This document shows positions 3,020 through 51,509 of a DNA stretch of 53,626 nt, in pieces; positions within the stretch are counted from its first letter, which is position 1, and the number at the start of each line of letters is the position of its first letter. The stretch is from Girardia tigrina (taxonomy: Eukaryota). The notes under the pieces were generated by a model. That model was not told the DNA's origin. It saw only the letters and a list, made by a program, of their open reading frames with translations, and did no database searches. Both the position numbers and the translations under genes were made by a program. The stretch is from positions 8,984 to 62,609 of the forward strand of contig MQRK01185036.1 in assembly GCA_001938485.1 (NCBI GenBank), read 5' to 3'.

Positions 3020-5020
3020 CTTTGATCAGAGGGTGTTAAACATTCAAAATCATCTATTTTGAAAAATCTAAATCCAAATACTATGAACTTAAAAATGATT
3101 TCACAATCATATAAAATTTGTGATATATTCAGCAATAAGACCTCAACTCCTCTCAGCTTTTTATTCCGATCTTATTTATAAATATACTTGTAATGGGTGT
3201 AACGCCGCATACATTGGAGACATATCTCGTCTTCTCTGCAAAAGGATCAAAGAGCATAGTCGATTGGATAATGGAAGCAATATTGCTGAAAATAATTTAA
3301 AATGTAAAAAGAAAATTGTAGAAATAGATTTTCAAATTCTGTGCAATCGATTTTAAAATTATTCGGAAAGTAACGTTGGAGGCCTTATCTAAAACCTCTA
3401 TGTATCTTAAAATTAATACTCAAGTTTGACACTGAACTTCTCCGTTTAACATTTTCAAATAGAGCTTTTATGAACCGTTAATTACATAATCATTCTTTTC
3501 ATATACAGTGCGTTCAAAAAGTAACTATGCACCTACAATTTCAAAACAAGAACAATCTCCTGTGTTCTAAAAATCAATAACAAAATATTTTGAATAGTCA
3601 ATTTTATGTGAAGAACAATGACCGTCTCTTAATTTATTAAAAATAAGAAGAAAAGAGTCACAACAACTGCTGGAAATGCCCCCCAAGTTCGTGAATACAA
3701 ACGTTAATTCGACGTTTCAAGTTTTCGAATACTCGATGAATTTCCTCTTGGGTGATGGCTTCAATTTGGTGTAGGATGTTATCACGTAGGTCTTGCAAAG
3801 TNNNNNNNNNNNNNNNNNNNNNNNNNNNNNNNNNNNNNNNNNNNNNNNNNNNNNNNNNNNNNNNNNNNNNNNNNNNNNNNNNNNNNNNNNNNNNNNNNNN
3901 NNNNNNNNNNNNNNNNNNNNNNNNNNNNNNNNNNNNNNNNNNNNNNNNNNNNNNNNNNNNNNNNNNNNNNNNNNNNNNNNNNNNNNNNNNNNNNNNNNNN
4001 NNNNNNNNNNNNNNNNNNNNNNNNNNNNNNNNNNNNNNNNNNNNNNNNNNNNNNNNNNNNNNNNNNNNNNNNNNNNNNNNNNNNNNNNNNNNNNNNNNNN
4101 NNNNNNNNNNNNNNNNNNNNNNNNNNNNNNNNNNNNNNNNNNNNNNNNNNNNNNNNNNNNNNNNNNNNNNNNNNNNNNNNNNNNNNNNNNNNNNNNNNNN
4201 NNNNNNNNNNNNNNNNNNNNNNNNNNNNNNNNNNNNNNNNNNNNNNNNNNNNNNNNNNNNNNNNNNNNNNNNNNNNNNNNNNNNNNNNNNNNNNNNNNNN
4301 NNNNNNNNNNNNNNNNNNNNNNNNNNNNNNNNNNNNNNNNNNNNNNNNNNNNNNNNNNNNNNNNNNNNNNNNNNNNNNNNNNNNNNNNNNNNNNNNNNNN
4401 NNNNNNNNNNNNNNNNNNNNNNNNNNNNNNNNNNNNNNNNNNNNNNNNNNNNNNNNNNNNNNNNNNNNNNNNNNNNNNNNNNNNNNNNNNNNNNNNNNNN
4501 NNNNNNNNNNNNNNNNNNNNNNNNNNNNNNNNNNNNNNNNNNNNNNNNNNNNNNNNNNNNNNNNNNNNNNNNNNNNNNNNNNNNNNNNNNNNNNNNNNNN
4601 NNNNNNNNNNNNNNNNNNNNNNNNNNNNNNNNNNNNNNNNNNNNNNNNNNNNNNNNNNNNNNNNNNNNNNNNNNNNNNNNNNNNNNNNNNNNNNNNNNNN
4701 NNNNNNNNNNNNNNNNNNNNNNNNNNNNNNNNNNNNNNNNNNNNNNNNNNNNNNNNNNNNNTTAAAACGCTCAGTGTCAAGGTCAAAGTGTGTAGGGTAT
4801 GTTTTTTGTTCACGAATCTATTTCATAGTTCGATTTCATAGAAATTTGCATTTAAAAAGTCTGCTACAACGCTGATTATCTAAAAATAAACCAGACAATG
4901 AAAGGTGCACAGTGACTTTCTGAACGCACTGTATAAGCTACGAAAACTAATGCTAATTTAGTCTGAAGATGGTAGGGAATCAACCAATATTTATTACAAT
5001 AGATTTTAAAAAATTATGTT
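3020..5020 (+). mobile_element. Penelope-like element 3' remnant (GIY-YIG endonuclease plus 3' region), split by a Tc1 element
   Basis: IYKYTCNGCNAAYIG...RIKEH motif. The 3' region resumes at about 4934 and matches the copy at 21180-21245. Confidence 0.8.
3506..4931 (-). mobile_element. Tc1/mariner (rosa-like) element with TIRs; interior mostly gap
   Basis: TIRs CAGTGCGTTCAAAAAGTAACTATGCACCT / AGGTGCACAGTGACTTTCTGAACGCACTG flanked by TA. Minus strand encodes a ...CIHELGGHFQQLL C-terminus. Confidence 0.85.
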
Positions 5021-5696
5021 CATTTTTTAGTGATATTTCTCCATTATTTTTTAAATTCCATACGTATTTTTATGTTAAAACTCCTTCAGAAAATTGCTAA
5101 CACCATATAACTTTTTAATCCTTACTAAACATTTGAGGGGCGGCAATTTACTACTTGATATAAATTATTAAAAATGAGTTGTTTCAACACATAATTGTAA
5201 AACCAAAACGTAAAGAAGTTAATCTTCGTCATACAAATTTATTTATTTTCGATAAATTTTTCTTTTCTAATATTTATTTCATTATTTTATATATCGAATT
5301 AAATACAAATTATAATTAATCTATAATTTATTATTATTTGTAACATATTCAATGCGAATTTAATATGAACAATTTAAAATGGTTTTCGTTTCTAGTTTTC
5401 TGAAGGAAATCTTTCATATTCTTTTTCTCATAAAATAAATAAATAAATAAAAGACTTGAGTACTTTTAAGTTCTTAATTTCTTCTAGAATACTGGTATTT
5501 TTCATGAGCAATGCTTAAAACGATAAAAACGAATACCCAATGAAGTGCTTCCAACACGTATAATGGACCAGCATATGGTGTCAAATGGCTTTTCATTACC
5601 GAGGAAATTACATTTTGTTTCACCAACTCCATTTATGCCCACATTTGAGAAACAGGTTGTCAAATGTCGCGACCGGGCATCGGTAATCAAGCTATA

Positions 5697-8724: not shown

Positions 8725-8920
8725 GGAATCAATATGGACAGAAAGAAATTTCTCATAGCGGATAAAAATAATGACAGCGCTCTGGATCTCCATGAATTCA
8801 CGGTGTTTACCCATCCTCATAATTATCCAGAAATGGCTTCTTACGAAATAGAAAAAACTTTAGAGGATTTTGACAAAAACAAAGATGGAGGAATCGATCT
8901 GAAAGAGTATATCGGAGATG
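8725..8920 (+). CDS. Calumenin-like exon 3
   Basis: tatag acceptor; GINMDRKKFLIADKNNDSALDLHEF..FTHP..DFDKNKDGGIDLKEYIGD (two EF-hands); GTAAAT donor (phase 1). Confidence 0.95.
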
Positions 8921-10098
8921 GTAAATTATTTATATTATATTATATTATATTATATTATATTATATATCTTGAAAAATTTAATCAAATGATTATAAAAAAA
9001 TGAATTCAACAAATTTATAAAAAAATAATACCCGAAATTGTCATTAGCAATTATTTCAAATTAATATAGACACAGACAATACCAATTAGTGAATTATTAA
9101 AAATTTCTCATTTTTTTTTCAAAAATAAAAATTCTTATTGGAATAGGAGGAATATAAATTTAACAAATAATATTAAAAAATAATATCACATATTTTATTA
9201 TGTTTTCTTTTAATTTTCTTTTCCTTTATTTTTAAAGGAAAATTGTTATTATTAATGAAAGAAAATTTTAATTTATTAGAAGTAATTTTTCAAGAATCTT
9301 ATATTGTATCCCAAACCCACTCGAGACGTTTTGAAAGAGATACGTTTCCAGGAATAAGAGATAAATTGACTAAGTCTCAGTTTTTTCTACATAAACCATA
9401 ACTACAAGAAAACAAAAAAATGTATTATACATATTTCAAACTTCCTTCATAATTTATTTTATATTTTGGTGAAGATTATAATTAAACATTAAGATAAATC
9501 TTAAAATCTCAGGTCTTTTTCTGCAATATTTTCATATAAATAGTCAAAATTATGGTTAAATGTTTTCACAGTACATAAAAATGTTTTACTATACTGATAT
9601 AATTAAAACAAAAATATTTTAATTTTTGGTTTGCAGTTTATTTGGTAAATGAAGAGCGAATAAATTGCAGTTAACGACACTTCTTTAGCTATCATAAACA
9701 GCTGTCGAAAGCGATCTTATAACTAGACTCAATTTCCATATCTTTTGCTTAATAATTGATATATTTATATTTATAAATATTAATTTTATATAATTAAAGA
9801 GTTCCAAACGCTTTATAGACATTATGATAATAAAAATACTGAAATTTCATATTTTTATTTATTTTATTTATATTGCAAGGAATTTTGGAAATTATTTTTT
9901 TAATCCTTCATTTATTTCTTTAATTTCAATAATCACATTAATGTTTGAAAAACATAATTTTGAAAATTAACGAAAACAATAAAAAAAATATTAAAATCTT
10001 TTTTCTTATTTTAAGTAATATTTTAAGTTAAAATTTAAGTAATAAAGAATAATATTTTTTAAGAAATGGAAACAAGATAATTTGATGATATCCTTTAA

Positions 10099-12790: not shown

Positions 12791-12822
<32 letters not shown>

Positions 12823-12839
12823 TAAATATATTTTTGAAA

Positions 12840-13420
12840 AATACATTTGTTAAAAGTTTTATTAAAAAATCAATATTGTACATGTTTCGGAACTTCTTTT
12901 TCCATTATCAGCAATTATATTAATTAGTTATAATGTACCTTTGTTATAAAGTGAATTTAAAAGGGATAATTTATTTATTTATCTTAATTTAAGATATTAT
13001 TGGATAATAATGACAAGATTCTTAAAAAAAATTTAATTACAAATTTTGAGATTTGAAACGGTTTTACTTAGTTCATTTTGAATATTTATTAATGGGTTGT
13101 AGTGATTCACAAAACTGTCGCTCATAGTGTGAATCAAAGTCCTTCCGTAAAACAGAAAACTCAAACAGAAGAGAATCTATTTTTACAGTGTAACCAATGA
13201 TTAAAAATCTTATTCGATTGACTTGATTATGAATGTTCACTAATCCGGGTTTTGAGATGAGGATTTGTTTCTCCAGTGTACCAGTTATTACACCATAACA
13301 ATTGCACGTATAAACAATTATATTCTCGCCAATACTCTTCTTATGTCTTAAATCCTTAAGAATATGGTATTTTGATGATTTTTTTGTGCTCTTCATTGTT
13401 TTCGTCTTTATCATTTGCAA
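12840..13420 (-). mobile_element. Penelope-like element 3' remnant
   Basis: FSVLRKDFDSHYERQFCESL resembles the PLE GIY-YIG C-terminus (same peptide at 44682-44805), followed by a hammerhead-like motif. Confidence 0.7.
12875..12915 (-). ncRNA. Minimal hammerhead ribozyme motif (G8 mutated to A)
   Basis: Minus strand: ATTG-CTGATAA-T-GGAA aaagaag TTCC-GAAA-CATG-TA-CAAT. Confidence 0.7.
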
Positions 13421-13634
13421 ATTAGTTTCTTTTATTATTATTATTATTATTTGATTTAAATCTGTCTTTTTTTGCTAGAAAAACAATTTCTCTTTTGCAA
13501 AATGAAATGAGATTATACTTGATTGTCAAAATTAAAACACGTTGTTATTTTTAGCAAAAAACATGTAAATATTTTGAAATAAATAATTTATGAATCGAAA
13601 ATAATACTAAACAACAATTTTTCTTTTTATTCAG

Positions 13635-20719: not shown

Positions 20720-21250
20720 AAACAGTCTCAATAATTTAGCACAAATAGCAGACTTTAAAATTCTTAAGAAAATAAATGCCGAAAATACATTGCCTCTAAT
20801 ACTTTATAAATTCATGCTCCGATCCTGTTTATAAGTATACTTGTAATGGGGATAATGCCACAAATATTGGAGAGACATCTCGTCATCTCTGCAAACAAAT
20901 CAAAGAGCATAGTCGGTTGGATAATGGAAGCAATATTGCCGAACATAATTTAAAATGTGAAATGAAAATATAAGAAAAGTATTTTCAAATTTTGTGCAAT
21001 CGATTTAAAATCTATTGGGAGACAGTAACGTGTGAGGCCTTAGTAATAAGATCCATGGATCGAAACTTAATAATCAAGCTTCACACTCAACTTCTCTGTT
21101 AAAAATTTTCAAAAAGGACCTTTTTGACATGATTAATTGAATATTCATTACTTTCATTTAAAAAAATGCAAAAAGTAATATTAATTTAGTTTGACAATGG
21201 CGAGGAATCCGCGAAAATTAATTACAATACATTTTAAAAAATTGCGTCCA
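20720..21250 (+). mobile_element. Penelope-like element 3' remnant (paralog of 3020-5020)
   Basis: VYKYTCNGDNATNIGETSRHLCKQIKEHSR GIY-YIG motif; degenerate hammerhead at 21189-21225. Confidence 0.85.
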
Positions 21251-21880: not shown

Positions 21881-24830
21881 TATATATATTTACCCGTCTT
21901 TATTTAAAATAATATAATACACAATAAATGAAAACATATTAATGACAGAAACATATTTTGATCCAAATTTTGTTACATATCATATAAGTTTTCTTCTTCG
22001 TTATTAAATTTTGCTTCTTTTGGTATATTATTTGATCTGTATCATCTTTCAATCTTCTATCGATGTGTGAGAAACAAAATCCTAAAAACAATCTACCAAA
22101 CAATAAACCCAATTCGAAAATATTCTTGAAAAATTAAGAATATTATATTTCATTAACAAATTTACTAAAATCTCATTTTAAAAGCAAAAGATTTGACTAA
22201 TTGTTTTTTTATGAAAGAAAAAAATGAAGAATTATAAAATAAATCTGGCAGAATGAAATAAAATCAAAATATATTCCGATTAAATGGAATTAGAAATTCG
22301 AAGAGTAAAGGTATTTTTTCATTCTTTTCTATTCTTCAAAATAGAAACCAAATCAATTTGTTCAATCGTCTTTCGCAGAAGATAATAAATATAAAAAAAT
22401 CCATCTAAAGATGGTTAAAAGATGAAAACTTTATGATGGGTCATTAAAATTTTATCCATAGCCCGTTCATTTTAAGATCGTTTTCCAAAATAAAAAAAAT
22501 CCATTAATAATTTCATCATCACGAACCGTTATAAGAGATTTTATCACGCAATTCAAATCAGTATTTTAAATTATTCAGCAGAAAGAAAATAAAAAAAAAT
22601 GTTTCATACTTTTAACAAAATGAATAAATAGCACTTCAAGTGGAAAACGTCTACCGGCATCGAAAGATTCTAAAAATCAACAGAATTTCAGAGTTTAATT
22701 AATTGAAATTAATGCGAGCACGGAATACACCATTAAACAGAAAGCCTCAATTTTCCTAAAATAAAAGTTTTGCTTAGTTTTGCCGAAAAAAATGTCTAAT
22801 CGCATACATCAAAGTCACATCGTTGATTGAATTCTCCAAATCCATTCATTAATCAGTGAACTTGAAGAAAATCTAATAATATATTACATAACCAATTTTT
22901 CCCTATTTTACATTCTTCATTGATAATTTTTTTTTCTCTCTCTCTCTTTCTATCTTTCTCACATAAAAATTCCATCTGTTACAAAAATAATATTATAAAA
23001 ATTAAAACAAAAAATACGGAAAAAAATAATTAATAAAAAATATATTACAATACACATTATTTATATTTTTTTCGAATTCATTCAAAAATAAATAAAAAAA
23101 TAGACAAAACGCTTTTTTTCATATTTAACAAAAAAATTATTTTTTAAATTTCTATTTTCAATTTTTAAAATATCTTAATAATAAATTAAAAAAATTTTTT
23201 TTTGTGTTTTGGAATCGTCTTTTCTGTTATCAGTGAGAAGAGAGCTCTTTTAATTCTATGTTTCGAGCTTGAGTTATACACAGCAAAATGAATCAATACT
23301 ATTTTAACACAATGAAAAAAAAACGTTACTTTCTTCATTGATGAGATACATGCAAATTCTAGAAGAACAGCATTCCGCAATTTACCTGTATATTCCAACT
23401 GTACTGAGACTGATTGCTTTTAGCAAATTCATTTCGAACGGTTGATGAGCAGATAACACACATGCAATTTTGGTAAAACACGAATTAACGGTCGAGGAAA
23501 AGGTTAATTTGATATATGCTTTTACCATACAAATACCGCATTTGTGTTTTCGTCAAATGGAGTGGATCGATAAATTCTTATAACTTGCATTGCAGTTGGG
23601 CAAATGCAGAATAATACAGAGCTACCAAAACAGTACTTAAGTAATTGACTCATATTTCTCCTGAAGACGACTTGCATGTCTACAGACTCGTCGATTTGAG
23701 CACAGCCTCAAGACTACACACTGTCAACAAGGATAATTGTCAGCAAGAAAAAGGATACGCATACACGCATGCAATTGCTAAAACCGGCCGACTATATTCG
23801 ATATCTATCATGCATCAATGTAGTGGTATAAATAGCTTGAAATTCGCTTTCGCTTTACTTTTCGACCAGAAATGAAAATTGAGTTCATAATTTAAGGTTT
23901 TTTTTGCTGTTTTAAGATAATTTGAATTTTCTTTTTTTTACTTTTTAAAAATAAGTATCCATGAAAATTTGCATTTACAACGTGTCTTTAGTTCATTCGA
24001 TACTAAGGCACGCGGTGAATGCTGAATTAAATGGTTGATCGTTCTAGAGTCAATTTTATTTATTTTTTTTAAAAAAATCTGATTTTATTTTAAGATTAAA
24101 AAATTTAATAATGCTCAAAAAAGGTATGTAAAATGTGGAGTATTTTTTTGTATTACTAATGTTTTTTATTTAGGAAAACAAATCAATCAGAAACCTGACA
24201 GAAAATGAGAAAAATAGAAAAAAAACAATTATTATTTTGGAGATTATGTTGCATCATTTCGTTTTTGTAAATTAAAATTATTATCGGTTTTAGTTTTGTT
24301 TTACTTACTGTTGATGGAAATATTGAAAAAAATGAAAATAAAATCGTAATTAATTATAATAAATTATAATTTCAATGATTTCAGAATAAATTTAGTACAT
24401 TACTTTTTTATACATTTTATAACAATAAATCAAAAATAATTATTTTTAATTTAAAAAAAAATAATATTAATATTACATCATAAGAATTTCTTTTTCATCT
24501 TAATAATAATTCAAATACGTTAAGTAAACTAAAATTTGTAGACATTTCTTCTATAAAATACTAAATTCCAACTGTGATGTAAAAATATTTTTTACAAATT
24601 TATATTTAAAATTATTTAATTCAACACTCATAAAATTCTACAACAATAATTCGAAATGAAAAAGCAAACAAAATAAAAACAATTACCCATATCGTAAATT
24701 ATTATTAAAACGCTAAAAAACATTTGTTTTAATGCATCATTTTTCGTATTTATTCGCGACAATTTTAAACTCAATTCTCATTTTCGGAAAGTGATTTTTT
24801 TATACCGTCTGATTTCTATTATATACCGAA

Positions 24831-26515: not shown

Positions 26516-26831
26516 ATTGAAGATAAGATCGATTTGTATCCGGGTCAAAAACCTCTCGCGTTTAAACGCTATGTTGATGACAATTTTCTTATTTTCGGTA
26601 ATCAAATTGATTTAGATCCATTTTTAGTGGGAACTGATCTTTTTGGCGCCGATTTTTTGTGCAGTAGTATTTTGAATTTTGTTGAAAGAAATTAAAGAAT
26701 ATATATACATATGTGTGTGTGTTATGCCAAATGAAAAATTATCGATTTAATATCAAAAAATATCGATGTAATATGAAAAAACGAAGTCCGGATGAAAATC
26801 TTCTTTTAATAACAACACTCATCCATTTAAA

Positions 26832-26868
26832 AATATATTTCGACGGATCTACCGTCATCTTCAGGTCC
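26832..26868 (-). ncRNA. Hammerhead motif; core intact but 3' strand of stem I missing
   Basis: Minus strand: GGAC-CTGAAGA-T-GACGG tagat CCGTC-GAAA-TATA-TT-ttt. Confidence 0.7.
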
Positions 26869-29216
26869 CTAATTAATAATCAATTCACCTGTATATAAAT
26901 ACAAAAATGATGATTATGTAATCGATTGCATGAAATCATGCTAATCAAAAATTCTCAATAAGCTGTTTGAGACTGCCGATTGAACATTGATTTTAGAGCA
27001 ACGTGACCTAATTAACAATGCTTCACACGACACTCTCTCCCAATAACTGTCAAAATGCTCACACAGAATTTTGAAATTATCAAAATTAACATCACATTTA
27101 CATTTTTTTCTATGTCCTGCAATATTACTCTTACTCTCTTTTCGACCATGTTCTTGAATTCGTCTACAGAGATGACGGGCAGTCTCTCCAATGTATGTGG
27201 CATCGCACCCATTACATTTATATTCATAAACAATATCAGAACAAAGTGTCAAAGGTGTAATCGATTTATTTCTGAATATATTTTGAATTTTATGAGATCG
27301 TGATATAATTCTTAAATTTAATTCATTGTTAGTTGCTTTTAACAATGCATTTTTAAAGTTTTTAAATCCTTCAGAATAAGGTACAATTAAACAATATTTA
27401 GGCATATTATTAATATCTAATGATCCTTCGATTTCTTTCTTAGATCCATCAGGAGAAGCCAAACTCTGATTTTTCGATAAATCTTTCAAAAGTATTTTAT
27501 CTACTGTTTCCTTTAATAATTTGTCTAGAAAAGATTTAGAATAACCATTCTGATTTAACAACGACCTTTCTACAGATTTAACAAAAGTGGAAGACAACGA
27601 CCAGGAGCGATAAATTAAACCTTTAATCATGTTTCTTTTATACTTAAGTTCACAAAAACTATCTGGTGAAGTATATAAACCTGTATCAGTTTGCTTCCTA
27701 TAAATTCCAGTCTTGTAACTATGATATTTTCTTTCAACCAAAAGATCCAGAAAAGGTGACTCCATTCTTTTCATTTTTAACTGTAAAAGTAACGTTTGAA
27801 TGTAACGAATTCATGAAATTCAAAAATGGAAGTACATCAGCCTGATTTTTAAAAACTAGAAATATATCATCAACGTATCGTTTATATACTAAAGGTTGAT
27901 TTCCATCAAACAGTTTAATTTTATTTTCAATCTTTGAAAGAAAAACAGAAGCTAACGTTGGTGCTAACGGTGAACCCATAGCAATCCCATCAGCTTGCTT
28001 ATACCACTCATTATTAAAAAGAAAATGAACATTTGATGTTGCAAAGCTCAATAACTCTCGAAACCCAACCTCGTCGATAATATGATGTTCTGAATTATTA
28101 TTTTTCCATAGATCACAACACAAATTCAAAGTTTCAATCAAAGGAACATTTGTAAATAAACTAGAGATGTCAAAAGAAACCATAAATTCACCTTCATTCT
28201 GTACTTTATAAGTAGAAATGAAATCAACAAATTCAAAACTCTCAAGACACAAAAATTTCAGATGATAATAGAATGTTACTTTTACAGTTGAAAATGAAAA
28301 GAATGGAGTCTTACCTTTTCTGGATCTTTTGGTTGAAAGAAAATCTCTTAGTTACGAGACTGGAATTTATAGAAAGCAAACTGATACAGGTTTATATACT
28401 TCACCAGATAGTTTTTGTGAACTTAAGTATAAAAGAAACATGATTAAAGGTTTAATTTATCGCTCCTGGTCGTTTTCTTCCACTTTTGTTAAATCTGTAG
28501 AAAGTGTTAATACACTAAGTTCGCTGTTAAATCAGAATGGTTATTCTAAATCTTTTCTAGAAAAATTAATAAAGGAAACAGTAGATAAAAATATTTTTGA
28601 AAGATTTTTCGAAAAATCAGAGTTTGGTTTCTTCTGATGGATCTAAGAAAGAAATCGAAGGATCATTAGATATGAATATGCCTAAATATTGTTTAATTGT
28701 ACCTTATTCTGAAGGATTTAAAAACTTTAAAAATGCATTGTTAAAAGCAACTAACAATGAATTAAATTTAAAAATTGTATCACGATCTCATAAAATTCAA
28801 AATATGTTCAATAATAAATCTATTACACCTTTAACACTTTGTTCTGATATTGATTATGAATATAAATGTAATGGGTGTGATGCCACATACATTGGAGAGA
28901 CTGCCCGTCATCTCTGTAAACGAATTCAAGAACATGGTCGAAAAGAGAGTAAGAGTAATATTGCAGGACATAGGAACAAATGTAAATGTGATGTTAATTT
29001 TGATAATTTCAAAATTCTGTGTAAGCATTTTGACAGTTATTTGGTGAGAGTGTCGTGTGAAGCATTGCTAATTAGGTCACGTTACCCTAAAATCAATGTT
29101 CAATCGACAGTCTCAACCAGCTTATTGAGAATTTTTGATTAGCATGATTTCATGCAATCGATTACATAATCATTATTTTTGCATTTTTATACAGGCAAAT
29201 TAAATTATCACTCATT

Positions 29217-29255
29217 GACCCGAAGATGACGGTAGATCCGTCGAAATATATTGTC
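29217..29255 (+). ncRNA. Minimal hammerhead motif (U4>C)
   Basis: GAC-CCGAAGA-T-GACGG tagat CCGTC-GAAA-TATA-TT-GTC. Confidence 0.72.
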
Positions 29256-29497
29256 TTGAAATATATTTTTAAATGGATGAATTTGGTTATTAATATGAAA
29301 AATTCTTTCAAAAATACAAAAGTTTGCAATTCAGTTTGTCACCAAGGAAGAAGTTGTTATCAATATGATTAAAAATTGACATCTGGAGTCTATTTTGCAT
29401 AATAAATCGATATTTTTTCATATTAAATACATAATGTTTCATTTTAAATTGAGAAATTTTCATTTTAAAATAATATCACACCAAAAACATTTTTGGT

Positions 29498-37325: not shown

Positions 37326-37671
37326 GTACGATGAAATGATAATTACAATCGATTTTGATTTTAAATATTTTCATTATTATTATTAATTATTATTATTTAT
37401 TATTTATTATTATTGTAAGGAAGGATGTTATTATGAATTAATTGCTATTCAAATTTGTTATCATTCAAATGTGTAATAATTTATCGAATATTAATTAAAT
37501 ATTCTTTGAATAAATTCAATTTGTCTAATGGCACTTTTATTAATAAAAAACCATAAAGCCATTTTAATTTGAAATTTTTATTGGAAAACATGTTTCAGCC
37601 TGTAAAGAACGCAAATTAGATAATAAAATTTATTATATAAAATATCTTAATAATCAAATTCATCCATTAAA

Positions 37672-37709
37672 AAATATATTTCGACGGATCTACCGTCATC
37701 TTCCGGTCA
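37672..37709 (-). ncRNA. Degenerate hammerhead motif (U4>G, stem I 3' strand missing)
   Basis: Minus strand: TGAC-CGGAAGA-T-GACGG tagat CCGTC-GAAA-TATATT. Confidence 0.6.
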
Positions 37710-38894
37710 CTAATTAATAATCAATTCACCTGTATATAAATACAAAAAGGATGATTATGTAATCGATTGCATGAAATCATGCTAATCAAAAATTCTCAAT
37801 AAGTTGGTTGAGACTGCCGATTGAACATTGATTTTAGGGCAACGTGACCTAATTAGCAATGCTTCACACGACACTCTCTCCCAATAACTGCCAAATGCTT
37901 ACACAGAATTTTGAAATCATCAAAATTAACATCACATTTACATTTTTCCTATGTTCTGCAATATTACTCTTACTCTCTTTTCGACCATGTTCTTGAATTC
38001 GTTTACAGAGATGACGGGCAGTCTCTCCAATGTATGTNNNNNNNNNNNNNNNNNNNNNNNNNNNNNNNNNNNNNNNNNNNNNNNNNNNNNNNNNNNNNNN
38101 NNNNNNNNNNNNNNNNNNNNNNNNNNNNNNNNNNNNNNNNNNNNNNNNNNNNNNNNNNNNNNNNNNNNNNNNNNNNNNNNNNNNNNNNNNNNNNNNNNNN
38201 NNNNNNNNNNNNNNNNNNNNNNNNNNNNNNNNNNNNNNNNNNNNNNNNNNNNNNNNNNNNNNNNNNNNNNNNNNNNNNNNNNNNNNNNNNNNNNNNNNNN
38301 NNNNNNNNNNNNNNNNNNNNNNNNNNNNNNNNNNNNNNNNNNNNNNNNNNNNNNNNNNNNNNNNNNNNNNNNNNNNNNNNNNNNNNNNNNNNNNNNNNNN
38401 NNNNNNNNNNNNNNNNNNNNNNNNNNNNNNNNNNNNNNNNNNNNNNNNNNNNNNNNNNNNNNNNNNNNNNNNNNNNNNNNNNNNNNNNNNNNNNNNNNNN
38501 NNNNNNNNNNNNNNNNNNNNNNNNNNNNNNNNNNNNNNNNNNNNNNNNNNNNNNNNNNNNNNNNNNNNNNNNNNNNNNNNNNNNNNNNNNNNNNNNNNNN
38601 NNNNNNNNNNNNNNNNNNNNNNNNNNNNNNNNNNNNNNTATTGCAGGACATAGGAAAAAATGTAAATGTGATGTTAATTTTGATAATTTCAAAATTCTGT
38701 GTAAGCATTTTGACAGTTATTGGGAGAGAGTGTCGTGTGAAGCATTGTTAATTAGGTTACGTTGCTCTAAAATCAATGTTCAATCGGCAGTCTCAACCAG
38801 CTTATTGAGAATTTTTGATTAGCATGATTTCATGCAATCGATTACACAATCATCATTTTTGTATTTATATCCAGGTGAATTGATTATTAATTAG

Positions 38895-38935
38895 TGACCT
38901 GAAGATGACGGTAGATCCGTCTAAATATATTGTCG
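38895..38935 (+). ncRNA. Minimal hammerhead motif (G12>U)
   Basis: TGAC-CTGAAGA-T-GACGG tagat CCGTC-TAAA-TATA-TT-GTCG. Confidence 0.68.
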
Positions 38936-40149
38936 TAAAATATATTTTTAAATGGATGACTTTGGTTATTAAAAGAAGATTTTCATCCGAACTTCGTTTT
39001 ATCAATATAAAATATTGATCAGGGTTTACTAACCATTTAAACTTGGAAATCTTCCCCTTTTATATTAAGGCAATGTTTTATAATATTATATAATATGCCC
39101 CGGGGTCAGTTGATGCAATTGAAATTGACCTTGCAATTGAATATTCCGGTGATATCATGACATGAAATCACCGGAATTTGAAATCTAGTGATGTCATGAG
39201 ATTTGACATCATTGAAGTTCGATATTACTGAATGTGGTGAGGAATGACATCATCACACAACCCTTCTGTACCATCGTCAGTTCTGTAAGAAAGTAAATCG
39301 TTGTTCTATTTATATTCGGAACACCATTACGTCACCATATCTTACATCATAATACTCTAATATGATTGGATGAATCGCTTTGAACGTTTAAACAAGGTTA
39401 GTGATTCTTAATTAACAGTGCTTCAGTAATAATCATTTCATAGTTTCAGTCACAATTACTAATTAAAACCCGAAAATCATTCTCATTTACTCTCTTGTGA
39501 GTTCCATGACAACCGTTAATGTGATCTAAAATAGAGCTTTTCTACTTGATTGGGTATGAAAATTCAAATTGGTGTTCTTAATTGTCTCTTATCTTGGAAC
39601 ACCCTTTTTGTTACATTTGCGTGATTTGATCTAATCTCCTTGTATTCACTGTCGTCATTGTATTCATCGATTTCACTATTAAAAAACATGTTTTCGATGG
39701 TATTAACAACATCACAATTTGAATGCAAACATTTATTTACAACACAAACAGATTCTTCACAACAATTTTCATAGGTCATCTTTCTTTGATTGATATAGTT
39801 TTTTATTAAATATTCAAATATGAAAAAATCAATGAAGGAGAAATTTTAATATTACATTTTAATTTCTCATAATTTTATTGGATAAAAAGACATTATGTAA
39901 TTTTTTAAATAAACATTAATTTTTAAAATATATTAAATTTAATAAGTTAAAATCGTTTACTGAAAATATTATTAAAATTCATAATTATCAAACTTTAATT
40001 AATTAGTACTTAAAATTAATATCATTAAATTAATTTCATTAGATTCAAATAATCAATCAAATAACATATCAACCCCATCTGAGTAGCAGAGTCACAACTC
40101 TAAACAGCATACAAATAACAAACTAACAACATTCCAAATTATCCCTCAC

Positions 40150-43275: not shown

Positions 43276-43712
43276 ATCCAATTGTCACTAAATAAAAACG
43301 TTTCTTAAAGTTGTCTTTTGTTTTTTTATTATTTGAAGAGACAAATTTCGATGAGTGTTTTGCCGAAGATATTTTCGTTTGATTGTTGTTATTATGAATG
43401 TCTTTCGATCAAATTCATAATTTGTTAAAATTAATTTTTGAAAGGAGTTTTTAAAATATTTTATACAATAAAATAAAAAAATTGAACACGATTTTTCAAA
43501 ATTTATTTTTGGTTTTGTAATTTGTGAGGTGGTCGAGATAATTTACATCTTGATCAAACTTAAGCCGAATTAATAAAAGAAATATGTTTTTAACAATAAA
43601 TTAAATAAAGTAATTAATTAGAAATTTTAGTAAAGTTAAAATTATAAGTTAAATTTCTAATGTGAATGATTCCGAGAAAATATATATTCGGTGTGATGGA
43701 CAAATGTAAATA

Positions 43713-43742
<30 letters not shown>

Positions 43743-43746
<4 letters not shown>

Positions 43747-44391
43747 GCCCTACCAAAAGTCACCGACCACCGGTGTGTTCGCAGTAATGAGAGATTATGA
43801 GAATTTTTAAACGAATGATATATTTACAAANNNNNNNNNNNNNNNNNNNNNNNNNNNNNNNNNNNNNNNNNNNNNNNNNNNNNNNNNNNNNNNNNNNNNN
43901 NNNNNNNNNNNNNNNNNNNNNNNNNNNNNNNNNNNNNNNNNNNNNNNNNNNNNNNNNNNNNNNNNNNNNNNNNNNNNNNNNNNNNNNNNNNNNNNNNNNN
44001 NNNNNNNNNNNNNNNNNNNNNNNNNNNNNNNNNNNNNNNNNNNNNNNNNNNNNNNNNNNNNNNNNNNNNNNNNNNNNNNNNNNNNNNNNNNNNNNNNNNN
44101 NNNNNNNNNNNNNNNNNNNNNNNNNNNNNNNNNNNNNNNNNNNNNNNNNNNNNNNNNNNNNNNNNNNNNNNNNNNNNNNNNNNNNNNNNNNNNNNNNNNN
44201 NNNNNNNNNNNNNNNNNTTCAGGAAGAGTGGCGCAATATTCCTCTGGACTTCCTAGCAAGTGTCGTCAACTCGATGCCAGATAGAGTGAAAGAGGTTATA
44301 AAATGCAAAGGACACTGTACAAAGAATTAAAAATTCTCATAATCTCTCATTACTGCGAACACACCGGTGGTCGGTGACTTTTGGTAGGGCG

Positions 44392-44394
<3 letters not shown>
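43743..44394 (+). mobile_element. Young Tc1 element in (TA)n; interior mostly gap
   Basis: About 65-bp essentially perfect TIRs; Tc1 C-terminus EEWRNIP..LASVVNSMPDRVKEVIKCKG. Confidence 0.92.
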
Positions 44395-44435
<41 letters not shown>

Positions 44436-44439
44436 GAGT

Positions 44440-44805
44440 CTTGTGAACGAAGTTTAGTATTTCGAAAATATAATTTGATTAAAGCTTTTTTTATATAATT
44501 ATTGGACATGTTTCGATGTTTACATACATCATCATCAGCAATTTTCGGATGTTTAGTAAATGAATATTGAATAGTTTGAATAATGCAATTTTAATAAATA
44601 TAATTTACTTTAAAAGGTGACGAAGAAATTAAACATTATTATTTATGAAAATATTATTGGGTAATAATAGCAAAAAATATTTTACTTAAAAATTTTAAGT
44701 ATTGAAATGACCTTACTTTGCTCATTCTGAATGTTAATTGATGGGTTGTAGTGTCTTATTAGTAGAGATTCACAAAACTGTCGTTCATAATGTGAATCAA
44801 ATAGA
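44440..44805 (-). mobile_element. Penelope-like element 3' remnant
   Basis: FDSHYERQFCESLLIRHYNPSINIQ GIY-YIG C-terminus, followed by an intact hammerhead. Confidence 0.82.
44501..44542 (-). ncRNA. Minimal type-I hammerhead ribozyme with intact catalytic core
   Basis: Minus strand: AUUG-CUGAUGA-U-GAUGU auguaa ACAUC-GAAA-CAUG-UC^-CAAU; GUC cleavage triplet; palindromic ACAUGU stem/loop III. Confidence 0.88.
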
Positions 44806-45976
44806 TTCTTCCACCTTTCAGGTAGCTTCATTATTCCTGATTCATAAAAACCTTTGCCTTTGTCAGCAAAAAAGCCGTCTAGGAACGATTTCATATCATA
44901 ATCACTGGCGAATGTTTTTTCTGTTTAAGGAATTCTGCAGTGATCTAAATAAGTGAAAATCCGATGGGGCCAAGTCTGGAGAATACGGTGGGTGCGGCAA
45001 AACCTCCCAACCCAATGATAAGACTTTCTGGCGAGTGGTCAAACTTGTATGCGGTCTTGCGTTATCATTCTGAATTACAACTCCTTTCGATTTGCCAATT
45101 CAGGACGTTCCTGTTGAATTGAATGAGCCAATTTCTCCAGCTGACCACAATATCTGTCTGAATTGATGGTTTCATTCCTCGAAAGGAGTTCAAAAAACAC
45201 AATTCATTTAAAATCCCACCAGACGGAAAGCATAACATTCTTTTGGTGAATTTCTGCTTTTAGGATCGTTTTGCCAGACTCACCACATTTTGTCCATGAT
45301 CATCAGTGTTCCACATTGTTGTAAACAATCCATTTTTCGTCACCCGTAATCAAGCGCTTCAAAAATGGATCACTTTGTTCTAACTTCAAAAAGGAATCGT
45401 AAATGTCTATACGTTTCACCAAATTAATTTCTTTCAGTTCATGTGGTAACCACATATCGAGTTTACTGACGAATCCAAGTTTCTTTAAATGACTTCTAAC
45501 ACTTGATTTTGATATTCCCAGAGTCTCTGCAACTTCTCTTGTCGTCATATGTGGATTAGATTTGATCAGTGCTGTTATTTTGTCGCCATCAACTTCAACT
45601 AGTCGACCGGAGTTTGGTGCATCTTTCAAATGAAATTTTTCAGAACGAAATTTAGAAAACCAGTATTGACACTCTCGAAGTTTTAAGGAGTCACTACCAT
45701 ATACAAAAAATATCTTCTTATGAGCTTGCACAGCGGTTTTCCCTTTGCGAAAATAATGCAAAAAAATATGACGAATATGCTCATTTTGATTTTCCATTTC
45801 GAATTGAAGGTAAAGTAATAAATTAAAACAAAATCAATTAATATTTAGTATAAACATAGTCTGAAAATTAAGGTTTCAGAATATATAATTGAATTTAAAT
45901 TTTATCACATCGTTTTATATTTTCAAGCTTTTATTAGGATGTACTCAAAAACGCAATGACTTTTTGGCCAACCCAA
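44806..45976 (-). mobile_element. Mariner (mellifera-like), 3'-truncated
   Basis: 5' TIR TA-TTGGGTTGGCCAAAAAAGT; ORF 45303-45797 with WLPHEL and TGDEKW; YSPDLAPSDFHLF downstream. Confidence 0.95.
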
Positions 45977-45978
45977 TA

Positions 45979-46715
45979 GAAACTTCTTTCCGAATAAGAA
46001 ATGTTTGAAGTTTTGGGTAAAGTAATAGATTGCCAATAATTCTTTTCTTGTAATACAGTATACAAGTTCGTGTTTGTTCATCTTGTGGGATCCATATGCA
46101 ATTACTCTTTCCCTTCCGTATTCATCCTTCTGTCCAAGTACTGGCTCGATTGTATCAAAACTGGCATCTGTATCCAGTATAAACTCCTTTTCGAAATCTG
46201 GATATGCTAGGATCGGTGTTTTTGTCATTTAATCTTTTAATGTCTGAAATGCTTCGTCACATTGCTTTGTCCATGTCAATTTTTTGTCTTTATTTTTTCC
46301 ACATAGCCCTTCCAGTATTTTTGAATATTTTACATAATTCTTTAAAAATTTTCTATAATAGTTCGTTAACCCCAAGAAACTTCTTAAATGTTTAATGCAT
46401 GAAGGATTTTGAAATTTGTCGATTACTTCAATTTTCGTTTTATCCGTCTCTATACCATCTTTGCTCACGACATATCCTAAAATTATGTCTTTTCTACCAT
46501 GAATTGACACTTTTCAGGGTTTATCCGAAGGCCCGATTCTTTATTCTTTTGAAATATGTGTTTGACTCGTCTGCACTGTTCTTCTTTGTCTTTTGCGAAG
46601 ATAAGAATATCGTCCAGGTATATAACTGCTTCTTTCCAGTTTAATTCTCCTGTCACTCTTGTCATTAGTTCTTGAAATGTCGCTGGAGCAGCTGCAATTC
46701 CGAATGGCATTTGTT
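45979..46715 (-). mobile_element. Ty3/Gypsy pol fragment (RT-RNase H)
   Basis: MPFGI..APATFQ, IYLDDILIF, LRSFLGLTNYYRKF, PILAYPDFEKEFILDTDAS and KELLAI; frameshifted. Confidence 0.95.
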
Positions 46716-47265
46716 ACGACATGAATATGATTATATAATTCGCCGAAAACCCTTCTCCAGACCCAACGTCCCGCATGCATGAAAGCCTTATTGAGAGTTT
46801 GTGGGGATAATCAAATTTGGTTTTAAATAGGCTCCGAGCGTTCTGAAACGAATGGCAGGAGAAGTACTCTTCGAACTTTGCCCCGTGTCTTTCCCAATTG
46901 AGTACAACCAGCGGAGGATCCTTCTGATAATACAATCATGTCTTCACTCCTTTCCTCCTTCCTGTCATGTAAACAGGATGACAATAGTTTTTCGAGATTG
47001 TGCATGTGACTGAAACATGCATACAGGATACCCGAGTGTGTCGGGTGAAGTATGCACAAACCATCAGATATAAATACCGATGTGTTTCCTGCCAATCTCG
47101 CACAATTTTACGCATATTTTTGGCACACAAATTACCGTTTTTGTGACTTTATTATTTTAATTTACGTATAATCGCAATTCACACAATTTCAAGAAGATTT
47201 TCCTAGTATTCATAATTTTACAGGTACGGGTTATCATTGATCGATGATTATTTATTTATGCCTAT

Positions 47266-50200
47266 TAGGGTGCATCAAACCCCCCGAAATTTTTTTTTTA
47301 GATTTACTACATGTACTTATTATAATTTTTTACAAATAGTATATAAACTTCCCATAAATTTTTTTTTGAAATTGAGTGTTGTTTAGGGGGTCCACCGTGG
47401 ACATTAAATTTTATATAATTTCGGTAATACATAAATTTTCTATTATGCTATTTTTATTACTGAATTTGGTTTTAATTTGTTTTAGATGTTTAAAAAATAT
47501 TGTTATAGTTTATTTTATTCAAATACAACTACTTGTCACACGGAAAGATCTTACTAAAATTAAATTCTGAACACAATTCATTCCAAAAAAATATATTTAA
47601 CAATATGGGGTTTGGTTAATCATGACTAATGATGTTACAAAACAATGTTTTTATTCGGTTGTATTCTTCTACATCAAGCTGCTATTTCGGGCAGCGAAAA
47701 GAGGAAGATGAGCGAGACATTAGTTCTGGTGCAATTGTTTTAGTCAAAATTGTGGACATTTCAATGCTGTCATCATCTCTAGAAGTGGGCCACTGAAAAC
47801 TAAAAAAACATAGATAGATTTATATTAGGTATGTTTAATGTTTATGTACTGAGTACTTACTTATTTTCACATATTTCTCTCATGTAACTGATCATAATTC
47901 TATCATTAACAACATGAATGACTTTTCCAAGATACCATTGATCATTAACACAATCATTGTATATAACAGCCACACAGTCTTGTGGATTCACAATTGACAG
48001 TAAAGGACATTCAGGTGCCAATTTTGCAGTTTTAGTCTTCTGGAGATGGATATCATTGCTATCCTTAACCTTATTGACCTCAAATTTTCTTCTCAAATAG
48101 GGATACTGTTTTCTGTTATCTTCCACTACTTGTAACACATTTTGGTAGTGATGCTCGCTTCTGGACGTTCCAACAAAATCACAGCTCAATTTCACTCCGC
48201 TTTCGGCAGTATCATTGACCACAGAAATTGATTGTATATTTTGAGCTGACAAATTATATGCATCTGATTTATCCCATTCATATGTATCCAATTCCATGAA
48301 AGCTGAGTCAATCTTCAGCAATTTAATTGTGAACCAAGCATCGCTTCTAACCAAATCTTCAAGATTACATGCATCAAATACATCAGGAAACTTTGGCTTG
48401 CCATATCCTGTACCAAAACGATATTTTGGTTGACAAATTTGAACATCATGGGGCTTGTTAATCAAGATTTGGTGTGCTAGATTTTAGCGTGTCTGTGCTG
48501 GTGTTTTTCTACTGAATAACGCGAGTGGTACCATTTCAGATGTCAGATACCATAGATGTCGACTGAATGCTTTGACTGCAACATTTGATATTAGTTTGTT
48601 GACGCATTCGTACTTCAAATTTTTCAAAAACATCAGATCATTCCATGGGGCATCTACAGCAGATGAGCAACTTAACCCCCAGCTGCAATATACATGAGAA
48701 ACAAAAGTTGAAAATTGTTGCAATTTCTCCATAACATGTGAATTAGTAATTGGATTTGAAGGCAGATTGAGTATTTCTTTCTGTAGCAAGCACATTTTTA
48801 TTGAATAGATAATCTTGGCCATCCAGTGTGCTTTATGCAAGGCACCGGGCTTCTTGAATGTAATTTTCTTTAATGAATCATTTTTACCCAAAAATATATT
48901 GCCCAAATCCAGTAACTCCTCATAATCATCTCTTACTTGTTTCTGCGAACATAAATTGAGCTGTTGAAAAAAATGTCTCAAGGACGACAAAAAAGTGTTG
49001 GCATCAGTATTTAGTTCACTGTAATCAGAGCATGATAAATTATTGACATCAATATTACTGTGAGGAATACTAGAAAAGAAGTGACGAAATCTAGTAAACA
49101 CAGAAATGTCTGGTGATTTGGAGGTTTCAATTTGCAAAGCACTGAACACATGGCTCAATATAACTTCACCAATATGATGACGACATCCTGACCACAATAA
49201 GGCTTTGTCAAGCTTGGTTTGTATACTGATGCAGGCTGCACTGCTGTGCCCAGAGTTTGAAGCAGTGGTGTCAAAAGTCATATTTACAATGTTTTCTGTG
49301 CAACGCCAAGAATGTAATAAGTTGACTGTAAGAGAGGATACTATGTCATTAGCTGATTGATCTGTTCCAGTTTTATATGATGGCGTTCCAAGCAGCTTTG
49401 TTTCATTTTGATTGCCAACCAGAACTGCTAATCTCTCTTCACTTTCATATTTATTGTATAAAAATGAAACTGACTTGGAATCCCAATGTACTGTTGCTAA
49501 TGATGGACATTTCCATGTTTCTTTGATATTGTCAGCCAACGTTTTAGTACTGCTTCTCCTTGATCGATCAGCAGTTGAATATGATGTGGACAACTGTGCC
49601 AAAACTCCACCTGATTCTTCTACCAATGCATTGACAAAAGCAGATTGCTGAGTGGGTGTAATTTGAAGCCTTGTTGCAATAGATACCACCTTTTCGCGTT
49701 TTAAGATATCGTGAGGTATGAAAGCATGCGTTCCAGTTCTTCTTGATCTATGGTGATGGTGAGATTGTACAGAATCATTTTGCTCCAATAATTGATCATT
49801 TTCATAACTTGTTGTTGAGGAATTGGAATCAATTTCAATGTGGTCCAGTATTTTATTACTAAAACTTTCATGTGTTGCTAAATGTTTTTTCCTTCTTTTT
49901 ATCTCTTGCTCTTTACGTTCTGTCGTTCTGTTTATTTTATCACTGAAAGTTTTATCATGTGAACCAAAANNNNNNNNNNNNNNNNNNNNNNNNNNNNNNN
50001 NNNNNNNNNNNNNNNNNNNNNNNNNNNNNNNNNNNNNNNNNNNNNATAAGCAGAATGTCTTTTCCAAGTAATTATTCATAACTTCAACTTTTTTCATCGC
50101 ATTTGGCATTTTTCTTCTTTCCATTGGAATTTCTCTCATTTTTGCATTATCTGCAACAAGTTTTAATATATTTTCAATACATTTTTTGTCTGATATCATA

Positions 50201-50887
50201 GACAAATTAGCCTTTTGGTGGAATGGAATAATTTTTTGCAACACCAAATTGCCAGACTGCCACTTTGTTTGGTTGGAATTCTCAGGGTTTTGTATGTGCC
50301 ACATTGTGCATCTTATTATCTGTCGATTCAAAGGCAACTTAGAACAACGAATCTCAGCATCATCTTCACAGATTCCACTGCCTAGTCCATAAATTTTGCT
50401 TCTTTGTCGTGTGGATGAATTGCTGTTGTTCATTAATTTCTCTATTAAAAAATACAAAAAAAGGTAATATAATATATATTATATATTTGTCAAGTTGTTA
50501 CATGCAAAAACAAAATTATTGATAAAACAGAAAGATCAAAGGGCTAAATAATGTGTGCGATTCTTTTCTGCTGCTTCAATCCAGAATTTAAATTACTTTG
50601 CTTTTTATGTCTAAGGCAGAAAATTTATATGTAGAAAAACTGTTTTAATTTGATTATGGTACACCAATACTAATTTTAGACTGTTTTAAAATTAGCCCTT
50701 AAAATATTCAATATTTTGAAAAAACGCACTTTTTTACGTTACATGTAATTCTTGACTTGTACTGTGGACCCCCTAAACAATATTTAATTTTGCTGAAATT
50801 TCACGTGAAACATTTTTACATGATTACTAAAAAAATTAGAATAGGTACAATAGAATTCTCAACTATGAGGGGGTTTGATGCACCCTA
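47266..50887 (-). mobile_element. hAT-superfamily (hATm-like) transposon, near full length
   Basis: TIR TAGGGTGCATCAAACCCCC at both ends; exact 8-bp TSD ATGCCTAT; transposase motifs HWDSK, FDTTASNSG, WSGCRHH, HLWYL and VVNDTAESGVK. Confidence 0.93.
47682..50433 (-). pseudogene. hATm-like transposase with one in-frame stop (48484-48486) and a predicted 61-nt intron (47800-47860)
   Basis: ORFs 48484-50457 and 47857-48465 share a frame; the GTAAGT...TTTAG intron joins in frame to FQWPTSRDDD. Confidence 0.8.
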
Positions 50888-51509
50888 ATGCCTATAGCTG
50901 TATTGTAATTTATATAATTTTGAAATAATTTTGCTATAATTTTCGTCATTTATAATGTTATATTGATCTAATATATCTTAAAAATACTCGTGTTGTTTTC
51001 GATTACGATAATATTATAATGGATAATAATATTTAATCAACATACAAGGCATAGACTTCTTCAGAACTACATATTTCCGTGAGTCAGTTGTTTATTATAT
51101 TACGACGGATGCCAAGTTAGCCGGGCTAACCTACTTATTTTGAAGTAAAAAGAGAGCTTCGTCAGTTAATAACAAAGTCTCAAGAGAGAGGAAAGTTATA
51201 AAAGCTGGTTTCTGATATCGTTTCCGACCAGGCAGCGGAATACTCGCTAGCATGTAGTCAGCTCGGCCTTTGTAAATAATGTATAGATAATGATTTAGTC
51301 TATCTCTTTTGTCCGTATTTTATTTTATTTTTTTTTGATATACTTTTCTTCTTTTATTATTTATTTTTTGATGACTGCAAAGATAAATAGATATTATCAA
51401 ATATGCATGGTCAGGTTTAAAATTCAAAGTTTAACGGTGAATTGGTGTAATTAATTAAAAGAGATAAATGTGACCATTGATGTTAAATCAATCCGTAATA
51501 ACAACTGAC

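Follow-up and report, generated by a model that had tools for sequence, protein, structure and literature searches.

A minimal hammerhead motif in a truncated Penelope-like element of Girardia tigrina overlaps the likely start codon of its family

Introduction

Minimal hammerhead ribozymes reside in the pLTRs of metazoan Penelope-like elements (PLEs), as described in the available sections of Cervera and de la Pena 2014 (PMC4209133), and an intact motif of this kind in a genome raises the question of whether it can still cleave and what a cut would do to the element that carries it. We investigated this question in a 53,626-nt stretch of Girardia tigrina DNA (contig MQRK01185036.1; hereafter, the window), which is AT-rich animal DNA crowded with transposon remnants. 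An earlier note, made from the letters of the window, had placed an intact minimal hammerhead on the minus strand at the 3' end of a PLE remnant and ranked it as the motif in the window most likely to self-cleave. The account that we consider probable builds on the observed motif, element, truncation and tail, and on the match of the reading frame beginning in the hammerhead palindrome to the N-terminus of the family protein: an intact minimal hammerhead resides in a truncated PLE copy, a cut dependent on dimer formation or on protein would sever the start codon in the active family, and the solo copy in the window would rarely cut.

The hammerhead motif

Direct reading of the minus strand gives a minimal type-I hammerhead motif at 44542-44501, with the predicted cut at 44505/44504. 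Stem I joins 5' AUUG (44542-44539) to CAAU (44504-44501) over 4 bp, the core letters CUGAUGA and GAAA occupy 44538-44532 and 44514-44511, respectively, and C17 is at 44505; an extra U follows A9 at 44531, and stem II comprises 5 bp (44530-44526 with 44519-44515) capped by a 6-nt loop. All the core nucleotides that the earlier note had called intact, as well as its 4-bp stem I, 5-bp stem II and extra U after A9, agree with this reading. CUGANGA, GAAA and UH are all present in type-I order, and the motif shares further features with the PLE minimal hammerheads described in the available text of PMC4209133, namely, a U (44531) between positions 9 and 10.1, a G10.1-C11.1 pair (G44530-C44515), a helix I of 4-5 bp, a palindromic 15.2-16.2 region (ACAUGU), and location in a PLE pLTR, the motif lying here between the last and the first codons of the ORF. 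Helix II, in contrast, is 5 bp long here and 7-8 bp in the Schistosoma families of that text.

A strict descriptor (CUGANGA, stem II of at least 4 bp, GAAA, palindromic helix III, UH, and stem I of 4 bp) matched the window once, at this motif, and had no match in 60 simulated windows generated with an order-3 Markov model, both strands being searched. Rfam hammerhead families share the catalytic core letters. None of these models, however, gave a match in the window (E up to 5) or scored the motif when 44400-44700 was searched (E up to 10), and the folding energy of the hammerhead region is ordinary (z -0.91, with 36/200 shuffles folding equally well). Neither result is unexpected because the third helix is unable to form alone. 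The motif search that the earlier note had proposed was productive with the descriptor and came back empty with Rfam. A chance arrangement of short motifs in AT-rich DNA would fit the Rfam miss and the folding energy, but is extremely improbable given the empty simulations, the position of the motif in a PLE pLTR below a peptide that matches a PLE protein, and the homologous motif at 12.9 kb, which has a compensatory stem II.

The self-complementary hexamer ACAUGU (44506-44511, minus strand), which contains an AUG at 44509-44507, had been described as a tiny palindromic stem and loop III. The palindrome is indeed present, but as a hairpin in the monomer it amounts to 2 bp closed by a 2-nt loop, which the energy model rejects; folding of the monomer and the dimer suggests that ACAUGU would make helix III only between two copies.

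The host element

Judged from its sequence, the host of the hammerhead is an approximately 370-nt, 5'-truncated, non-coding PLE copy of the Penelope/Poseidon type, located at 44801-44430 on the minus strand. The upstream portion (44682-44801, minus strand) comprises the last 39 codons and the stop of a GIY-YIG endonuclease domain, recognized through homology to the protein P0006, with the 5' truncation at 44801 marked by loose contig ends. This frame ends at TAA (44684-44682), and an AT-rich pLTR spacer of 139 nt (44543-44681, minus strand), present at family-level depth in 4/4 sequencing runs, separates the stop from the hammerhead; accordingly, the distance of about 140 nt from the GIY-YIG stop given in the earlier note stands, the GIY-YIG C-terminus being known through homology. 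Downstream, the PLE "tail" (44430-44509, minus strand) carries the first ~27 codons of the family ORF, counted from the palindrome AUG and matching the protein P0023, and loses the frame beyond codon 20 because one base is missing near 44450. The copy ends 3' in a (TA)n tract (44394-44431), likely the insertion target; a (TA)n end is likewise seen in the decayed relative located at 12.9 kb. Thus, the motif is a PLE minimal type-I hammerhead, as the earlier note had proposed, but what it took for the 3' end of the remnant includes at 44509-44430 the start of an ORF rather than plain 3' flank, an overlap with the 5' end of the element's ORF that it had missed.

The 41-aa peptide preceding the stop had no Pfam match by itself, and a search with it returned 2 proteins out of 2 candidates. 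P0006 (536 aa, with an RT domain) is 97% identical to the C-terminal codons of the copy over 38 aa; it is an RT+GIY-YIG protein and belongs to a cluster of 15 members. P0006, P0021 and P0023 display RVT_1 (E 2.1e-11), a DKG motif and the residues CxxC-YIGET-R-EH-H-C, and combine RT with a C-terminal GIY-YIG, CCHH and the R/H/E/N residues, the features of EN+ PLEs (PMC8557442); the window copy at 44801-44430 keeps only the ends of this RT+GIY-YIG ORF. The Pfam GIY-YIG model gave no score for P0006 at E 0.1, and a related ORF at 27 kb of the window scored 5e-05. By eye, P0006 and P0023 show no CX2-5CxxC linker zinc finger between RT and EN; Neptune, Nematis and Naiad do carry one (PMC8557442). 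An RT followed by a C-terminal GIY-YIG without this linker zinc finger is likewise described, in the accessible portions of the report, for the Anolis carolinensis Poseidon element PAc (Frangieh et al. 2024, PMC11167929). By its ORF and motif features, the family falls with the EN+ PLEs of the Penelope/Poseidon type. Its DNA was not found in viral contigs or in prokaryote genome contigs, where only 2 loci of one distant PLE were detected.

Contigs from 4 (X1-X4) of 23 listed runs, which carry three organism labels, were aligned to 44330-46100. The segment 44450-44801 is a high-copy repeat in 4/4 runs examined, the summed contig depth of the family reaching 1.5-3.4 million in X1 and X2. At 44801, 214, 234, 35 and 29 contigs from the four runs continue into element sequence that matches the decayed relative at 13.1 kb, indicating that the PLE copy is 5'-truncated at this point. 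At 44450, loose ends were present in 60, 71 and 11 contigs of X1, X2 and X4, respectively, with the family extending to about 44430 and then giving way to TA-rich sequence; boundary loose ends were therefore seen in 4/4 runs at 44801 and in 3/4 at 44450. Six listed positions (44573, 44585, 44669, 44685, 44709 and 44722) distinguish the copy from the majority of the family, and no variant falls within 44501-44542 among the 40 variant rows listed, to which 177 further rows are to be added. A single contig of X3, a run that is RNA only by guess, spans the cut site (44458-44565); as contigs cannot show ends, it counts neither for nor against cleavage.

A search at up to 3 mismatches gave one match in the window, and no tandem unit was found. 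Non-LTR retrozymes (bioRxiv 10.64898/2026.07.22.740005, available text) likewise carry a type-I hammerhead related to those of PLE pLTRs, but they are tandem non-coding repeats with a hammerhead in each unit, whereas the window copy stands alone and includes the two ends of a PLE ORF.

Just upstream of stem I, 44556-44543 (minus strand) is a near-copy of the stem II 3' strand plus GAAA, possibly what remains of a short duplication; 12 contigs of X3 are missing about 18 nt at this place. We considered this near-copy as an inhibitory partner of stem II and rejected it at a pairing probability of 0.03 or less. A promoter scan with a bacterial model, which is not meaningful in this case, found 4 candidates against 4.9 expected.

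Genomic neighborhood

The truncated 5' end of the PLE abuts a broken mariner transposase gene (44806-45978, minus strand; HTH_48 E 4.5e-19; loose ends at 44806 and 45978) that is missing its last codons and right end. At 44806, 64 and 103 contigs continue into mariner's own end, identifying the neighbor as a mariner with its last codons lost. Across 44906-44685 (minus strand), the mariner transposase frame runs in frame into the end of the PLE endonuclease; no fusion protein is expected because the mariner gene is broken upstream. Beside mariner's left end lies a broken gypsy-type RT/RNase H fragment (45923-47107, minus strand; RT_RNaseH_2 E 4.2e-23). On the other side, directly downstream of the PLE tail, 43707-44430 holds an element that has inverted arms of ~100 nt (96%), is bounded at either end by (TA)n and contains an N gap; it looks like a MITE inserted in the TA tract. 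Long reading frames without a Pfam match at 47857-50478 (minus strand), accompanied by inverted arms at 47264-47398 and 50761-50889, have as Atlas neighbors (score 0.96-0.97) unnamed proteins of 590-730 aa from eukaryotes, mostly arthropods, and possibly encode an undescribed DNA transposase.

A second PLE family occurs twice in the window, at 26806-29293 and 37647-39004, as inverted pairs of 5'-truncated copies, the second pair with an N gap. Its minus-strand copies, with cores at 26864 and 37705, share the loss of 15 nt between short direct repeats, and with it the loss of the stem I 3' strand; at 26864, the deletion leaves the frame from the stem II AUG open. On the plus strand, 21191-21240 is hammerhead-like, with a weak stem II and with C3U and G8A changes that correspond to the U3-A8 core variant in the available text of PMC4209133; in its relative at 4963, C3-G8 is present and G12 is lost. 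A mir-124 precursor (23963-24030, plus strand), which has an Rfam E of 0.00058 with a score below the gathering value and a hairpin z of -5.4, is the one host RNA gene clearly recognized in the window, and an EF-hand pair at 8725-9000 (plus strand; E 5.7e-09) is likely an exon of a host gene.

Relatives of the motif

Sequence comparison revealed an older, decayed relative of the same PLE family at 12791-13473 (minus strand), with 72% DNA identity over 162 nt. Its hammerhead (12915-12875) carries G8A and has the same stem I and palindrome, while stem II differs in sequence, with 4 bp kept and 3 pairs changed on both sides. Covariation, which the earlier note had named as a check on the stems, is accordingly supported for stem II, where 3 of 4 pairs are compensatory, but not for stem I, where there is none, in a comparison of 2 copies only.

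A metagenome scan using the core letters only yielded at least 136 distinct motifs in at least 109 loci, the sequences being related and in some cases overlapping. Among the matches listed, stem I had at least 4 bp in 86/134 (64%) flanked motifs, against a mean of 16% for swapped partners (maximum 27% in 1000) and 0-4.5% for shifted partners, and stem II had at least 4 bp in 113/134. By blastn, only the core matched, these motifs belonging to other families. With 2, then 2, then 49 protein queries, no PLE ORF was detected in the flanks of the matches listed (0/100 upstream, 0/113 downstream), so that the metagenome motifs support the fold of the class and not its link to PLEs.

Many of the metagenome motifs are arranged in close inverted pairs with a spacing of 120-270 nt (L016, L021, L027, L037, L050, L069, L070); with no PLE ORF nearby, these are likely short non-autonomous derivatives in host DNA. 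Locus L110 contains a full-length PLE in tandem, each repeat carrying a hammerhead with the palindrome ACUAGU (2359-2400 and 5442-5483); its contig is filed in a bacterial MAG and is likely animal host DNA in that assembly.

A likely start codon inside the palindrome

The frame from AUG 44509 is open, and 18/20 of its residues are identical to residues 1-20 of P0023, the longest member of the family (836 aa). Upstream of 44509, the frame reaches a stop without a further AUG, and P0023 has its next Met at residue 287. P0023 carries its FLxxC motif at position 55, 54 residues after Met 1, which is in the common range of 49 relatives (mode 57) and indicates that this Met is at the usual start, the annotated start of P0023 being a gene caller's choice from one record. 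The 836-aa ORF of the family thus appears to start at the AUG inside ACAUGU, the likely start codon, and we infer that AUG 44509 would be used in cells. Together with a cut after C44505, this start places the predicted cut in codon 2. PLEs may carry an intron in the ORF-start region (PMC2377424 and PMC4209133, available text).

This arrangement resembles that of PAc, in which, according to the accessible portions of PMC11167929, the ORF start codon also lies within the hammerhead and upstream of the cut, and genomic copies also end in a "tail" inside the ORF start, at AT-rich targets. The two differ in detail: the PAc start is at stem II, 26 nt before the cut, whereas the AUG in question is in the helix III palindrome with the cut in codon 2, and the tail ends about 80 nt into the ORF here, compared to 111-118 nt in PAc. 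The sections of PMC4209133 available do not place an ORF start codon in the palindrome. Several other PLE remnants in the window are open for 36-47 codons from a stem II AUG, the placement known from the anole element. For the anole PLE, a start codon located upstream of the cut is already published, and placement in the palindrome is an added detail that is not general.

Indeed, we rejected the general rule that the ORF starts inside the hammerhead, given that, among the metagenome motifs listed, frames were open for at least 25 codons from the stem II AUG in 4/81 and from the palindrome AUG in 2/81. The tandem PLE of L110, whose ORF begins downstream of the core at a distance of about 135 nt, also argues against a general palindrome placement, and the N-termini of 40 relatives showed no enrichment of hammerhead-encoded peptides. 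Phe at position 2 in 11/31 relatives (P about 0.01 vs positions 3-12) fits AUG-UU, but was not counted because positions 10-12 hold equally many Phe.

Folding and the likelihood of cleavage

Among 10 hammerhead-like motifs in the window, 44542-44501 alone passes the strict descriptor; in the other nine, a core letter is altered, GAAA is lost, stem II is weak or a strand of stem I is deleted. The ranking of this motif as the most likely in the window to self-cleave consequently holds, but does not make cleavage itself likely. In the monomer, where helix III cannot close, the hammerhead fold with helix III open has -2.2 kcal/mol, compared to -6.4 kcal/mol for a fold that pairs the core with the palindrome. 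Folding of the whole element gave a probability of about 0.05 for stem I and about 0.43 for stem II, and stem I remained at 0.04-0.09 in longer contexts. An active dimer can be drawn at -10.2 kcal/mol, whereas two misfolded monomers reach -12.8 (2 x -6.4) and the dimer optimum is -15.4, in a model without Mg2+ or tertiary contacts; with the active dimer falling short of the predicted optimum, support for the dimer step comes from the literature. According to the available text of PMC4209133, a tested PLE monomer did not cleave, and dimers and trimers cleaved at a low level; the review PMC6765202, in its available text, says the same of the PLE minimal hammerhead class. In the accessible portions of PMC11167929, cleavage by the anole PLE ribozyme required the element's protein and depended on C3 and G8.

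It is very unlikely, in our estimation, that the copy yields transcripts, either through its own pLTR promoter or by mariner read-through, and cleaves measurably in cells through family RNAs or protein acting in trans. All core letters are intact, the listed variants spare the motif, the high-copy family could supply partners, and an internal promoter is described for the corresponding part of Penelope (PMC2377424, available text). However, the copy is solo, the nearest same-family motif lies 31.6 kb away and carries G8A, stem I is rarely predicted to pair, and even dimers and trimers are weakly active in print. The contigs of X1-X4 cannot show RNA ends.

Discussion

The motif class described here is published and common, and the window copy is a dead fragment; the added value is in the geometry. 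In the account that we favor, two family RNAs would pair through ACAUGU, or the element's protein would fold them; in the dimer, each core would cut its partner's GUC site, after C44505, and in the active family the cut would leave an RNA without the likely start codon. At an AT-rich (TA)n target, reverse transcription would have set out from a point about 80 nt inside the ORF and ended at 44801; initiation within the ORF, at AT-rich targets, is how the accessible portions of PMC11167929 account for the "tail". The resulting solo copy (44801-44430) would likely cut rarely.

The motif might, alternatively, be kept mainly as a passenger or in a non-catalytic capacity, as start-codon context or for protein binding near the start of reverse transcription, with cleavage playing no part in the life cycle. 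Several observations point this way: ribozyme mutants of the anole element insert normally in vitro and no RNA-seq reads ended at the cut (PMC11167929, available text), Naiad PLEs thrive without hammerheads, their authors raising parasitism by the ribozyme (PMC8557442), and two copies of the other PLE family in the window share the 15-nt deletion of the stem I 3' strand. Nevertheless, we find this alternative quite unlikely, given that the whole core is kept and the stems remain paired with varying sequence across families, which start-codon context alone would not require, and that the anole motif does cleave.

A more specific function, the hammerhead as a dosage-sensing translation switch in which pairing hides the AUG and the codon-2 cut removes it, is an idea that we advance tentatively and consider unlikely. 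No translational role for PLE hammerheads was found in the titles or abstract openings of the literature matches listed, the word "translation" is absent from the main text of PMC11167929, and the available text of PMC13725137 describes self-cleavage that promotes translation in RNA viruses, the opposite geometry. If the switch were real, no in-frame AUG would be left before residue 287, and abundant element RNA, or RNAs joined by the protein, would turn the messenger into an untranslatable template, limiting the element. This would provide a directly testable function for PLE hammerheads, with the many intact truncated copies as possible trans partners. Because the start codon lies upstream of the cut in both the palindrome and the stem II placements, a simple reporter test is possible, and such a test would address the question of why PLEs retain a slow ribozyme when insertion in vitro can proceed without it.
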